Part shown: positions 27,118-39,604 of the stretch, one piece after another
How positions within the stretch are numbered: the stretch's first letter is position 1
Layout: every line of letters begins with the position of its first letter
Assembly: GCA_964016885.1 (NCBI GenBank)
Contig: CAXHJY010000462.1
Span: forward strand, 164,963-228,962
Length of the DNA stretch: 64,000 bases
Direction: 5' to 3'
Origin: Eledone cirrhosa
Lineage: Eukaryota
Position numbers and translations under genes: made by a program
The notes under the pieces: model-generated
Seen by the model: the letters and a program-made list of their open reading frames with translations, nothing else
The model's database searches: none
What the model was told of the DNA's origin: nothing

Positions 27118-27750
27118 TCATAAATCATGTCCCTAGAATTATTAGATGAAATATATACTATTTCCTCTCCCAATTAGCATAATTAACCATATAAAAAATC
27201 AATTTGACCAGGCTATAAGAATAATGGCTCCTATGAAGAAATATTTGATAAATAACCGAAAGCAGCCTCTTCGCGGTTGACCACAATAGAGTATTTACCC
27301 AACATTTCAACAGCATGTAGAAACTGACCAAATATACCGTCAACCATACACAATTAGGTATAAAATTAAAATTAGAAGAAATGCGTACATACCGTAATTA
27401 TATCCCTACCATGGTTTCGTTCGTATTTTGAGATATCCTATTAAGGATAAATCTCGAGTATCGAACTCATCAGGAGACAAACTCAATAGGACAGTTAATT
27501 TTTCCAAAGCGATCCCGCCAGAAGTAGATTTTAAAAATGGCTAAGAATCGTGACGTGGCAGTGGTCAAGTTAGAAAGAATGTGATTAGTTGCTTACGGCG
27601 AGTAGGCTGGTTGCTAGAAAGCGCAGCCCAATATCGCCCAAATTGCATCTCAACCCAACGGGAGATTATTAAATATAAAGATTTACATATACATAAAGTC
27701 ACAGATATATATGTGGCAACCGTTCACAATGTGGCTCAATGAAGAATAAT
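27118..27750 (-). mobile_element. HHR-bearing non-coding element, family B (about 630 bp, in (TA)n)
   Basis: Homologous to 38690-39320. No ORF, flanked by TA tracts, contains a canonical HHR. Confidence 0.8.
27401..27479 (-). ncRNA. Type I hammerhead ribozyme with a canonical core
   Basis: Minus strand: tgtctc-CTGATGA-gttcg...cgaac-GAAA-ccatgg-T-A-gggata. Stem I 6 bp, extended stem II, palindromic ACCAUGGU stem III, GUA site. Confidence 0.85.
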
Positions 27751-28325
27751 ATATATATATATATATATATATATATATATATATATATATATATATATAT
27801 AGTTGACGAGATGAGCATGGTTTTCACTGCTAGTACCGGTTGCACCTCAGCGTACTCAATAGGTAATATTAAGTAAACTCCCAGATTAGACACGTAGTTA
27901 TTCGCTTTAACACAAGATACGTAAATGGGTGCCTTCAATCTATAACCGTACTCGAGTTTCGGCAACAATCTGTCTGCATTTATGCAATACTGCACAATCG
28001 GTGCATGTGGGGTTATCACCGGGTTTCGCCTAATCAATAACCAATCGATCGACTGGATTCGATTCCTGTCTGTGACGGCTATGAGTAAATGTGACGGCCA
28101 ATACAGTAAAACATTAGCAACTGACATCCCTACGAGTTACCACAATGCAGTAAGTCGACTGGCCTTTGATTCGGAAATTTACGTGACGACAGGTGACGAA
28201 ATTCAAAATACTTCCGTCCCCGCCATAAGCTCTCAGCCAACGGATCTCAAACGCAAATGAACAAGAGAGAACGTTTTGGATTATGTTATTCACTAGCCTT
28301 CCATCTTCGATATATCTCTATCTAT

Positions 28326-28454
28326 CTAGGGCGGGTGAAATTCACGAGATCCATAGACGAGTTCTCTCCAACGGTCTCTGTCCCTCACCATCGTTACCAT
28401 GTCCTGCGTCTCCAAGAGACCGGTGTCTGTCCTTAGGGCATCAACATATGTCAA
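28326..28454 (-). mobile_element. 3' tip of an RTE-like LINE (same family as 46584-46922)
   Basis: LTYVDALRTDTGLLETQDMVTMVRDRDRWRELVYGSREFHPP*. Confidence 0.8.
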
Positions 28455-28726
28455 TATATATATATATATATATATATATATATAAATGTAAGTATGCATG
28501 TATACGTACATACATATATGTATACAGACGTACAGTAGCATGCACATATATATATATATATACATATATATATACATATGCATACAGGTACACATACATA
28601 TATGCACGTATCAGTTTAGCGGCGCTAACGTCGCTTTGTTCGTTTGTAAACAAACTGAACAGCCTGAATTTATGCCATACGGTGTTAAGGCAACCACGTC
28701 ACCTTTTTGTTCAACACTGACACAGG

Positions 28727-28771
28727 AACGATGTACTAGTTTCAAGCTTGTTAGCTATCATCAGAACCGTT
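28727..28771 (-). ncRNA. Type I hammerhead ribozyme (inverted monomer; core-proximal stem I mismatch)
   Basis: Minus strand aacggtt-CTGATGA-tagctaacaagctt-GAAA-ctag-T-A-catcgtt. Confidence 0.7.
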
Positions 28772-29001
28772 TACCCCTCTGCCAGATAGTTGAACGTTCG
28801 AAAGTATATACTTTCCTTATGAAAATTAACGGCTGAGCAGCCTAATTTGCATATTGAGTGAGTTAAATCGGTCAGGCATACCGAAAACGATAAATTGAAA
28901 CAAAATGAAAACGAAATTTCATTTCTCACTCTTAGTATGGCACTTACTTTTCATAAGGAAAGTATATACTTTCGAACGTTCAACTATCTGGCAGATGGGT
29001 A

Positions 29002-29046
29002 AACGGTGCTGATGATAGCTAACAAGCTTGAAACTAGTACATCGTT
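29002..29046 (+). ncRNA. Minimal type I hammerhead ribozyme, unit 1
   Basis: aacggtg-CTGATGA-t-agct-aaca-agct-t-GAAA-ctag-T-A-catcgtt. 7-bp stem I, 4-bp stem II closed by U-U, palindromic ACUAGU stem III, GUA cleavage after 29039. Confidence 0.85.
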
Positions 29047-29467
29047 CCTGTGTCAGTGTTGAACAAAAAGGTGACGTGGTTGCCTTAACACCGTATGGCA
29101 TAAATTCAGGCTGTTCAGTTTGTTTACAAACGAACAAAGCGACGTTAGCGCCGCTAAACTGATACGTGCATATATGTATGTGTACCTGTATGCATATGTA
29201 TATATATATGTATATATATATATATATGTGCATGCTACTGTACGTCTGTATACATATATGTATGTACGTATACATGCATACTTACATTTAAGTAAGTGCC
29301 ATACTAAGAGTGAGAAATGAAATTTCGTTTTCATTTTGTTTCAATTTATCGTTTTCGGTATGCCTGACCGATTTAACTCACTCAATATGCAAATTAGGCT
29401 GCTCAGCCGTTAATTTTCATAAGGATAGTATATACTTTCGAACGTTCAACTATCTGGCAGATGGGTA

Positions 29468-36416: not shown

Positions 36417-37057
36417 GATCATTAAGGAATTGGATATTGTAAATATTTTTCTCATTATTGAACTCATGTTTGGAACATAACTTAATTGTTCTTACTCTCT
36501 CCATATTATGGTGGACATGTTTTAGATAAATACAAACACTATAAAACAAGCATATTTATTGTAGAATCCAGTACCATATTAGGCGGTCTAGTGTCAACAG
36601 TGTTAGAGAATAATCGAGATCTCTACAGCAATTGTTGTCAAAATATTAAAAGTAGGTAGGAGGTAGATCTAACAATGAAGTAGCAAAGAAAGTCTCAACT
36701 ATTAAAATGATTTCTACTGTCACACATCCGAATAATCTAGATCATTAAGGAATTGAATATTAAATATTTTTCTCATCATTAAACGCATGTTTGGAACATA
36801 ACTTAATTGTTCTTACATAATATTATGGTGGACAGTTTTTAGATAAAACAAACATATTTATTGTAGAATCCAGTACCATATCAGGCGGTCTAGTGTCAAT
36901 AGTATTAGAGATAAAGCGAGATCTCTACAGCATTTGTTGTCAAAATAAGATTAAAAGTAGGTAGGGGTAGATCTAACAATGAAGTAGCAAACAAAGGCTC
37001 AACTATTCAAATGAATTCTACTCGCACACATCATAATCACAATTATCGGGATCATTA
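36417..37057. repeat. Diverged tandem duplication, about 320-bp unit, 2 copies
   Basis: gatcattaaggaattg at 36417 and 36741, with collinear internal sequence. Confidence 0.85.
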
Positions 37058-37059
37058 TC

Positions 37060-37350
37060 ATCTTGTGGCCTCGCTGGAAAGATACTCAACGATAGATATC
37101 TTCGTAGGTCTCTCACTCGTTGCATTATCTATGTTCTGAGCATCAATACTAGAGTCTGGATAGGAGAGCGTACCACCCTTTTGACAATAGACAGAGTTTG
37201 TTTCCACAGCATTAACTGACACAGCTTCATTTGGGGTGCTATAGCAATGGCTTGCAAACCTAACATTCCTCTTCCGCACTCTAAGAGAAAGACGAGAGAG
37301 TGTCTAAGCCGCTTATATTGCTTCCAGCTTATGTTTTGATCCCAACAAAG
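37060..37350 (-). mobile_element. Degenerate RTE-like LINE 3' fragment
   Basis: NISWKQ...R.RFASHCY..PNE.VS..L.W...L.YPD pattern, related to 46584-46922. Confidence 0.55.
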
Positions 37351-37929
37351 CAGTGAATGTTCTATCGAGTTGTTTTTGTTGTTTGACAGTAAGTGCCTAG
37401 GTTTACCTACCATAAAGTAGGATTTGTTATACTGCGATTTGGAAAAAATTGACTTTGGAGGTGTTTGATAGGCTGACGCCAGGGTTTTTTCTAGTGTTGA
37501 AATCTCCAAGAATATAGACACATCTATCCAGAGCATAACAGTTATACGCACACAAACACACACATACACACATACACACATACACACATACACACACATG
37601 CACACACACATGCACACACACACACACACACAGACACACACACACACACACACACACACACACAAGCGCGCGCACACAAACACACACACACGTACGTTTA
37701 TGTATATATATATATATATATATATCAACATATATATATATATATATATATATATATATATATATATATATATATATATGTGTATGTATATACATGCATA
37801 TATATTTGTGTGTGTGTAGACATATATATGTATATATACATGTAAATATATATATATGTGGATATATATATATGCATATATATGTGTATGTATATATATA
37901 TATATATATATATATATATATATATATAT

Positions 37930-38191
37930 ATATCACATAAGAAACGGAGAATCAGTGGTACGACGAATTAACATTTATTAGACATATTACAATCGTTTCT
38001 CTGGTGACCAGCTCGAGGCACGATCGATGTGATGATTGATCCTGACTCTGAAATCGCAAGTTCCTCAGATACGTATCGATCATTCGAAGCAGAGTTTCTA
38101 AATGTATTAGACATATTACAAACTCTGTTAGTAATATTTATAATAAACTTTAATTCGTCGCACCACTGATTCTCCGTTTCTTATGTGATAT
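37930..38191. mobile_element. About 260-bp element with about 60-bp imperfect terminal inverted repeats and a degenerate HHR-like motif
   Basis: atatcacataagaaacggagaatcagtggt.cgacgaatta versus its reverse complement at 38151-38191. Minus strand acgtat-CTGAGGA...GAAA-cgattg-T-A-atatgt (37982-38074). Confidence 0.6.
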
Positions 38192-38689
38192 TATACTCGG
38201 CTCTGTAAGAGTATCGAGTGCTCAAGCGGCCTACTGCATACGGACGCTTTAAGCATCCCACACCAATTATATATATATATATATATATATATATATATAT
38301 ATATATATATATATATATATATATATAGAGAGAGAGAGAGAGAGAGAGAGAGAGAGAGAGAAAGAGAGAGAGAGAGACGTTTATGTAAGATCTGTGACTT
38401 GGTCGGTATGAGATGAGGCTACTAAGCCTATGTATACTTAAGAAAATACTATATATTTTCAACCGTTCTTGCAGGGATATACAGTCCTGATATATGTATA
38501 TATAAATATGTGTGTGTATATATGTGTGTTTGTGTGCATGTGCATACTTACATTTATATATATATAACAACAATATATATATACATATATATATATATAT
38601 ATATATATATATATATATATATATATATATATATATATATATATATATATATATATATATATATATATATATATACATATATATATATA

Positions 38690-39604
38690 CTATAAAATAT
38701 GTCCATAGAATCATTTGCTAATATATATACACCCTTTCCTCTCCCAATTAGCATAATTAACCACACAAAAATTCAATTATACCAGGCTTTAAGATTAAAA
38801 GAAATAGTAGATAAATAGACGACAGCAATCTCTTCGCGGCCAACCGCCATAGAAATTTAGCCAACATTTCAACAGCATGTAGAAATCGATTAAATATACA
38901 GTCAACCATATAAAATTAAAGTTAGAAGAAATGCATATACACATACCAGGATTATGTTTCTACCCTCGGGTTTCGTTTGCATTTGGAAATATCCTATTAA
39001 GGATAAAATCTCGAGCTTCGAACTCATCAGGAAACAAACTCGTTAGGACAGATTATTTTCTTAAATGATCCACGTCAGAAACGAATTCAAAATGGCTAAT
39101 AATTGTGACGTGGCAGTGGTCAAGTCAGATATAATGTGATTGGTTGCTTACGGCGAGTGGGCTGGTTGCTAGAAAGCGCAGACCAATATTGCCCAAATTG
39201 CATCTAAACCTCATGGAAGATTATTAAATATAAAGATTTACATATACACAAACTAGACAAAGTCACAGATATATATATATGTGTTTTGGCAACCATTCAC
39301 GATGTGGCTCAATGATGAATTAATAAATTAAATAATCAGAGCAATATACTATAAAGTATGTCCATAGAATCATTTGATAATATATATACACCATTTCCTC
39401 TCCCAATTAGCATAATTATCCACACAAAAAATTAATTAGACCAGGCTATAAGATTAAAAGGCACCTATGAAGAAATAGTAGATAAATAAACGACAGCAAT
39501 CTCTTCGCGGCCAACCGCCATAGAACACAACATTTCAACAGCACGTGGAAATCGATTAAATATACCGTCAACCATACACAATTAGGTATAATTAGGTATA
39601 AAAT
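38690..39604 (-). mobile_element. HHR family B, about 1.4 head-to-tail units (period about 659 bp)
   Basis: gtccatagaatcatttg at 38701 and 39360. Homologous to 27118-27750. Confidence 0.8.
38955..39036 (-). ncRNA. Type I hammerhead ribozyme with a canonical core
   Basis: Minus strand tgtttc-CTGATGA-gttcg...caaac-GAAA-cccgaggg-T-A-gaaaca. Stem I is perfectly Watson-Crick. Confidence 0.8.

Follow-up and report, generated by a model that had tools for sequence, protein, structure and literature searches.

The non-autonomous repeats that carry hammerhead ribozymes across animals form a known class. The systems closest to the one described here are the animal retrozymes devoid of long terminal repeats (non-LTR retrozymes; PMC7229834; bioRxiv 10.64898/2026.07.22.740005). 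These feature canonical type I hammerheads within non-coding units with a GC content below 50%, occur as head-to-tail copies and as solo monomers, show no LTR structure, and have been proposed to be mobilised by Penelope-like elements (PLEs). Hammerheads are found also in the pseudo-LTRs (pLTRs) of Penelope, Poseidon and Neptune elements (PMC4209133, PMC8557442, PMC11167929), where partial tandems with a truncated copy upstream, inverted 5' partners, (TA)n targets, palindromic stems III and ribozymes lying well inside the inserted sequence have been described. Schistosoma Sm-alpha and newt satellite hammerheads (PMC6155905) have type I topology and a weak stem III. A hammerhead-bearing repeat family with a 659-bp unit has been identified in a 64,000-nucleotide stretch of Eledone cirrhosa DNA (contig CAXHJY010000462.1, positions 164,963 to 228,962), called hereafter the window, in which all coordinates are counted from the first letter. 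The family would extend the class to a long unit and to cephalopods, and is probably a non-autonomous, Penelope-dependent element functioning like an animal non-LTR retrozyme.

All the features of non-LTR retrozymes mentioned above are shared by the 659-bp family. The unit length is within the range given in the 2026 preprint (51-972 bp; 10.64898/2026.07.22.740005), but is longer than that of the retrozymes described in PMC7229834 (150-450 bp). Stem II is a 48-nt extended arm, whereas in animal retrozymes it is made of about 4 bp and a loop. In contrast to retrozymes with two-ribozyme loci and RNA circles, this family is known here from DNA, with at most one ribozyme per window copy. The resemblance to pLTR hammerheads concerns the partial tandem headed by a truncated copy, the inverted 5' partner, the (TA)n targets, the palindromic stem III and the internal position of the ribozyme. 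Unlike pLTRs, no reverse transcriptase/GIY-YIG open reading frame (ORF) is attached to the copies in the window, and the family was therefore not assigned as a pLTR. Moreover, animal pLTR motifs are mostly minimal, whereas a 6-bp stem I and a stem III are found here, and the inverted partner of one copy belongs to a different family. Type I topology, a weak stem III and a U next to stem I are shared with the Sm-alpha and newt hammerheads, which differ in having a terminal loop 2 near the core. Judged from these sequence features, membership among non-LTR retrozymes is probable.

Self-BLAST and a profile scan of the window revealed four family pieces and no others, all on the minus strand. Copy A (27118..27754) is a near-full monomer, lacking about 25 nt of the head-to-tail linker, with (TA)n on both flanks; its GC content is 35%, and that of the unit 34-35%. 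Copy B1 (38690..39344) is a full 659-bp unit, the 3' end of which lies at a (TA)n run. Copy B2 (39345..39604), located head-to-tail upstream of B1, is a 5'-truncated 0.4 unit that begins about 40 nt downstream of the ribozyme position and hosts no ribozyme. Copy C (26164..26268) is a 105-bp fragment which starts at a (TA)n run; within the unit, its start and that of B2 nearly coincide. An earlier note on this DNA had described 38690-39604 as approximately 1.4 head-to-tail units with a period of about 659 bp, and this was borne out, the period being exactly 659 bp at two landmarks. The third fragment that it placed at 26160 is real, and corresponds to copy C, but holds no family ribozyme. The span 27118-39604, given there for the family, is not a single element, and includes separate insertions. 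Substitutions number 79 in 612 aligned sites between copies A and B1 (12.9%), 16 in 236 between B1 and B2 (6.8%), and 4 in 107 between C and A (3.7%), and on this ground two sequence subfamilies, A/C and B, are distinguished. Ribozymes are present only in A and B1. The family has no sequence relationship with the other hammerhead families of the window; similarity to the one with a 470-bp unit does not extend beyond TA-rich patches.

Words of copy A were found in five public sequencing runs, corresponding to three coded species labels and three studies. Four of the ten runs listed were aligned to the unit at 80% identity or more. At this threshold, 3048 contigs of run X1, 70 of X4 and 2 of X5, plus 4040 restriction site-associated DNA (RAD) reads of X8, match copy A, and in X1, X4 and X8 the matches cover every identity class. 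This indicates a high-copy, diverse family under two species labels, present in traces under the third; summed contig depth was not used as a measure of copy number. In X4, the species label of which differs from that of X1, three contigs pass the 5' end of copy A into a B-like head-to-tail linker with a 7-nt insertion, and in one contig the sequence returns from 27712 to 27115. The B locus is therefore not alone in having the head-to-tail junction. No aligned contig of the four runs covers the whole unit. Molecule ends shared by X8 reads were considered as element ends and discarded, as all of those listed (six of ten rows) lie at AATT and reflect the RAD library.

The hammerhead motifs were searched for with a descriptor that combines CUGANGA, GAAA and NUH with a stem III, a 5-bp stem II in which no more than one mismatch is allowed, and a stem I whose length is 5 or 6 bp. 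In the window only the motifs of A and B1 match, against 0.01-0.02 matches expected per window from 100 block-wise dinucleotide shuffles. Both had been located correctly by the earlier note, at 27401..27479 and 38955..39036 on the minus strand, and in both the CUGAUGA/GAAA/GUA core and a 6-bp stem I are intact. In copy A, core residues are 27473-27467 and 27418-27415, and cleavage is predicted between 27407 and 27406; the 5-bp stem II is followed by a 6x6 internal loop and a 10-bp extension, and stem III is palindromic. In B1, where cleavage is predicted between 38961 and 38960, stem II contains a C.A mismatch, and stem III is formed by 3 bp closed by a CGAG tetraloop. An ACCC-GA-GGGU stem III had been previously proposed for this copy, but a 2-nt loop cannot close. 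The long stem II extension is present in both copies, and 48 nt separate the core boxes. All three helices are found in both, with stem I open-ended and G10.1-C11.1 closing stem II, and 45 of the 46 pair cells of the two copies are paired (97.8%; 28-57% in slid controls).

It is hardly credible that the hammerhead match is a chance motif occurring in an ordinary repeat, given how few motifs are expected in shuffled windows and the presence of three stems and core in both diverged copies. The notion draws on the lack of hammerhead matches to Rfam in the window, in full local scans as well as among the 150 of 264 rows listed, and on the energy of the full hammerhead fold, which in both copies exceeds that of the minimum-energy fold by about 3.6-3.8 kcal/mol. 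The Rfam miss, however, is probably explained by the 48-nt stem II arm that separates the core boxes. A U directly follows the 6-bp stem I in both copies, and a U at this position plays a role in tertiary contact. A contact between loop 1 and loop 2, a trait of canonical forms, would have to come from the 6x6 internal loop if it exists here. The extended stem II offers a handle on the folding of such type I hammerheads.

When A and B1 are compared, 18 of the 23 pairs are invariant, three have one-sided changes and are still paired, one, a stem I pair, has had both partners replaced (C-G to U-A), and one, the C.A in the core-proximal stem II of B1, is broken; stem III of B1 has one extra pair. 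The claim that pairing and core are retained thus holds for the core, and for all pairs but this one. Paired positions have changed (6 of 46, 13%) at the unit-wide rate. The chance of the pair-keeping pattern was evaluated by 200,000 simulations of random substitution per setting. Given six substitutions in paired positions, at most one broken pair is obtained with a p of 0.028-0.039, and an intact core along with at most one broken pair with a p of 0.017-0.022; these probabilities are optimistic, since the structure was fitted to the two copies in the first place. One or more double-sided changes are obtained by chance at a frequency of 0.15-0.17. A shuffle control based on pair counts (265/500) is uninformative with two rows. 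The idea that covariation implies selection is therefore weakly backed, by the five of six changes which keep pairing, while only one pair in 23 is double-sided. Selection on ribozyme structure is suggested, not demanded, by the comparison of the two sequences.

The same figures bear on the hypothesis that a former retrozyme or pLTR is now spreading as a DNA-level satellite, or as a repeat similar to miniature inverted-repeat transposable elements, in which the ribozyme is a decaying relic and pairs have been kept by chance. Paired positions evolving at the background rate, a double change expected by chance in 15-17% of cases, and the broken stem II pair in B, the B-type 3' strand of which was found in 4 contigs of X1 (with a loose end at 27449), all agree with decay. 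Yet an intact core with at most one broken pair (p about 0.02), the lack of terminal inverted repeats, the combination of fixed 3' ends and variable 5' ends, and a strand-asymmetric variation unlike that of ten control repeat pairs make a relic of this type improbable. Among the 40 of 263 variant rows listed for the public runs, three variants map in the ribozyme, at 27405, 27421 and 27460, and none at a core position. At 27405, the U.G wobble of copy A is replaced by U-A in most of the family. The 27421 variant would change U-A to U.G if the partner is unchanged, and the 27460 variant sits in the stem II internal loop. The variants at the two stem positions are thus common ones that are compatible with pairing.

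Predicted foldings differ between copies. Core-proximal stem II has a pairing probability of 0.9 in copy A folded alone, and of about 0 in B1, because a rival hairpin wins. Stem III of copy A is weak in fold prediction. Stem III is self-complementary in both copies, and could form self-duplexes of -11.2 and -13.2 kcal/mol, in line with the dimer mode of cleavage through self-complementary stems III described in PMC4209133; in animals, stem III is usually short or palindromic, which permits cleavage as dimers. Whole-copy folds have z values of -4.2 to -4.4 for A, -1.4 for B1 and +0.4 for B2, and circular folds (25 shuffles each) of -4.4 for A and -1.4 for B1. The 3' half of the unit is predicted to form a long imperfect hairpin (approximately 27145..27385, minus strand), the 3' arm of which includes a 25-nt block that A, B1 and B2 share without a difference. 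In consensus folds of this hairpin double changes were found in 1 of 72 and 2 of 147 pairs, and provide no evidence of covariation.

The 3' ends of A and B coincide within the unit; they abut (TA)n directly, and the predicted cut is about 290 nt upstream of them. The 5' ends of A and C adjoin (TA)n as well. In all, four of the six family ends are found within 7 nt of a run of at least five TA repeats, while 4.1% of the non-run bases lie within 10 nt of one; the ends are not mutually independent. Target-site duplications, which in non-LTR retrozymes exceed 4 bp when present, are not readable, as the ends are in (TA)n. While 3' ends are fixed, 5' ends vary, and terminal inverted repeats are missing.

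Each of the remaining two ends is joined to another hammerhead element. The 5' end of B2 is linked head-to-head, through an inverted repeat (39600..39655; arms of about 28 bp) that has 4 nt in common with B2, to a short element on the plus strand (39627..39847) carrying a minimal hammerhead (core at 39710). A second copy of this element is found at 574-782 (core at 645). The two copies are 83% identical, start at nearly the same base, and represent a third hammerhead family, about 220 bp in length and of the minimal type. Copy C is fused to a tail unrelated in sequence (26107..26166, minus strand), which ends at a (TA)n run and carries at 26166 a hammerhead core without the 5' strand of stem I. 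This tail, joined to copy C at a common CTG, is the remnant of a possible fourth hammerhead family. Core-only hammerhead motifs are expected 0.2 times per shuffled window, and the position of the 26166 core at the junction is therefore unlikely to be due to chance. Among the features described for PLEs are partial tandems led by a truncated copy, 5' partners in inverted orientation and (TA)n targets (PMC8557442), and a PLE protein has been described to cut and extend both target strands, and to start reverse transcription inside its RNA (PMC11167929). Ends located at (TA)n or fused to hammerhead families are a Penelope footprint. The head-to-head join of two families may result from copying from both ends of one break; two successive insertions would account for it too. 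Fusions between hammerhead families provide a handle on whether retrozymes are mobilised in trans by PLEs.

Whether any copy is attached to a Penelope ORF had been listed as a check by the earlier note. None was found in the window, nor was a GIY-YIG domain, in a Pfam scan of 150 of the 248 non-repetitive open frames of at least 45 aa. Three matches that fell short of the curated threshold, two to zf-RVT (13.1 and 14.3 kb) and one to RVT_1 (46.9 kb), are of LINE (long interspersed nuclear element) type and are far from the copies. The nine read-through frames of A and B1 contain no PLE domain, and no Pfam family at the curated cut-off. The decayed end of a PLE endonuclease was sought in the 5' part of the unit, and neither Pfam nor protein-search matches were obtained, the protein search being weak. 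By sequence, the unit is non-coding.

These data are relevant to the alternative that the copies are the 5'-truncated ends, either pLTR or 3' untranslated region (UTR), of an autonomous PLE with its ORF elsewhere in the genome. Such an element would leave the same integration footprint, hammerheads are the rule in pLTRs (PMC4209133), PLEs make up 6.83% of the Octopus vulgaris genome (PMC13282606, supplement), and summed depth in X1 is highest near the 3' end, although the sum is not a copy number. Against this, what follows the unit on its 5' side is the linker (locus B and X4 contigs) and, for locus B and a single X4 contig, also the 3' end of the unit itself, not coding sequence; no coding remnant was found in the unit, within the reach of the weak protein search; and the motif has a canonical 6-bp stem I, not the minimal pLTR type. 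Altogether, we regard the pLTR alternative as unlikely, though worth keeping in mind. A GGTATGT sequence resembling a splice donor is found on the minus strand just after the ribozyme, at 27393 in A and 38947 in B1. A pyrimidine-rich tract ending in AG occurs on the same strand about 160 nt downstream, at 27231 in A and 39465 in B2. PLEs are known to keep introns in their 5' UTRs. No contig joint in the four aligned runs matches a GGTATGT...AG intron.

If the family is a Penelope-dependent element working as a retrozyme, source loci with at least two head-to-tail units would be transcribed on the ribozyme strand. Neighbouring hammerheads would pair via the self-complementary stem III and cut, releasing 659-nt monomers, which are possibly circularised. 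The reverse transcriptase/GIY-YIG endonuclease of a PLE would nick (TA)n DNA, and start copying internally, some 290 nt downstream from the cut, at the end common to A and B. On a template that is circular, or multimeric and uncut, copying would traverse the intact ribozyme and stop at variable length, after about 1.0 unit in A and 1.4 units in B; alternatively, template switching would generate the fusions seen at B and C. The ribozyme is intact in the middle of the insertions, and the template should therefore have had its cut site joined, as in a circle or an uncut multimer, and not in a linear cut monomer. Self-cleavage is a predicted property of the motif. Copies in the window have one ribozyme each, and would therefore be unable to excise a monomer alone. 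They are likely spent insertions of two subfamilies. The view that the family is an independent retrozyme or pLTR-like lineage, put forward earlier, is well served by the non-coding unit, the partial tandem, the (TA)n ends, the high copy number and the unrelatedness to the other hammerhead families.

Several observations weigh against the retrozyme interpretation. The partner PLE was not found in the window. Active copies are recognised in the 2026 preprint (bioRxiv 10.64898/2026.07.22.740005) by two consecutive units each with a ribozyme; no window copy has such an organization, nor was a locus of this type seen in the aligned contigs. The B1 motif is predicted to misfold, the pairing probability of stem I is near zero in both copies when 150 nt of context on either side are included, and copy A alone folds better than shuffles, B1 and B2 do not. 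Since B1 and B2 differ by 6.8%, B either is of old age or derives from a mixed array, not from one circle. Eight of nine Xenopus retrozyme dimers tested were left uncleaved in vitro, according to the same preprint, and for a lizard PLE the ribozyme cut was dispensable for insertion in vitro (PMC11167929); the presence of the motif is therefore no guarantee that cutting has a role.

Variation in the family is strand-asymmetric. Variable places were counted against copy A on the ribozyme strand. A-to-G changes exceed U-to-C changes in X1 (33/174 vs 16/237, p 2e-4), X4 (34/174 vs 17/237) and X8 (44/174 vs 35/237, p 0.011), and G-to-A changes similarly exceed C-to-U changes, with p values of 0.06 in X1, 0.007 in X4 and 0.18 in X8. 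On this strand, A/G variation exceeds U/C variation about 2.5-fold. As X1, X4 and X8 have the reference and the family history in common, the bias amounts approximately to a single observation. Within the window, counts are 15 against 5 for A and B2 (p 0.011), 27 against 20 for A and B1 (p 0.096), and 3 against 3 for B1 and B2. In ten control repeat pairs of the window, p values for strand asymmetry are all above 0.27. The bias seems easier to reconcile with copying via a single RNA strand than with amplification at the DNA level only. Two explanations of it found no backing. Pairing would imply an enrichment of variable A/G sites opposite U, and none was seen in the predicted fold (permutation p 0.77, 19 sites); a depletion of 5' G neighbours, expected from editing, was not observed (4/19 and 5/25 vs 63/291). 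A narrow phrase search of the literature on retrozymes and ADAR editing returned nothing relevant. The heterogeneity of retrozymes and pLTR hammerheads is flagged as unexplained in PMC7229834 and PMC4209133, and the strand bias provides a handle on the source of that of retrozymes.

A bolder interpretation, quite unlikely in our opinion, is that the family is a living circular-RNA retrozyme of a cephalopod, the RNA of which is altered before being copied back. The A/G excess would be a fossil trace left by A-to-I editing, or by selection at the RNA level for pairing that tolerates G.U; the internal loop of the extended stem II would provide the tertiary contact, and represent a new architecture; and the head-to-head fusion would be the product of a Penelope enzyme copying two RNAs from both ends of one break. 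If true, RNA alteration would address why retrozyme and pLTR sequences are so heterogeneous.

No family of this type was found among the matches listed in literature searches combining hammerhead or self-cleaving ribozymes with octopus or cephalopods; it may sit under another name in supplements or repeat libraries. Cephalopods or octopus are not mentioned in the main text of PMC7229834. The 2026 paper on Octopus vulgaris repeats (PMC13282606) does not mention ribozymes, hammerheads or retrozymes in the main text, nor ribozymes in the supplement. No report on type I hammerheads with an extended stem II was retrieved by a narrow phrase search. The ribozyme pattern has three matches in metagenome contigs and one in viral contigs, none of which resembles the unit beyond the pattern. 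Two conserved family motifs have no matches in viral contigs, and one family motif has two matches in prokaryote genomes, confined to the 18-base pattern. One of the metagenome matches (L003:3001-3053) features both hammerhead core boxes around a possible hairpin.

The 470-bp hammerhead family spans residues 28483-30283, with cores at 28764 (minus strand) and at 29009, 29475 and 29945 (plus strand). It consists of about 2.9 tandem units, 98% identical, and an inverted copy upstream, and is bounded on its two outer sides by (TA)n. Units that carry ribozymes follow one another in this family, in contrast with the 659-bp one, and it looks young. Its circular fold has a z of -9.1, which results in part from an internal palindrome. 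The window is rich in microsatellites, a composition which, along with the short interspersed element at 11001-11204, is in keeping with an octopus host. Many long inverted repeats, several of which are centred on or bounded by microsatellites, are located at 12285-12767, 25672-25849, 26416-26572, 34797-35119, 44810-45681, 47799-48001 and 62755-63066; the one at 34797-35119 is 97.5% palindromic. LINE fragments are found at 14259-15194 (plus strand) and 31994-32362 (minus strand). The former is an open 311-aa frame with a weak Pfam zf-RVT match only, and both presumably carry the C-terminal motif of elements of the restriction-like endonuclease type. The 3' end of another LINE, terminating in (AAT)n, is repeated at 12768-14190 (minus strand), 31122-31880 and 57395-57640, with up to 92% identity. 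One short interspersed nuclear element (SINE) is present in at least 10 copies or fragments, among which those at 11001-11204, 12285-12470 and 30374-30757, and we take it to resemble the tRNA-derived SINEs of octopus.

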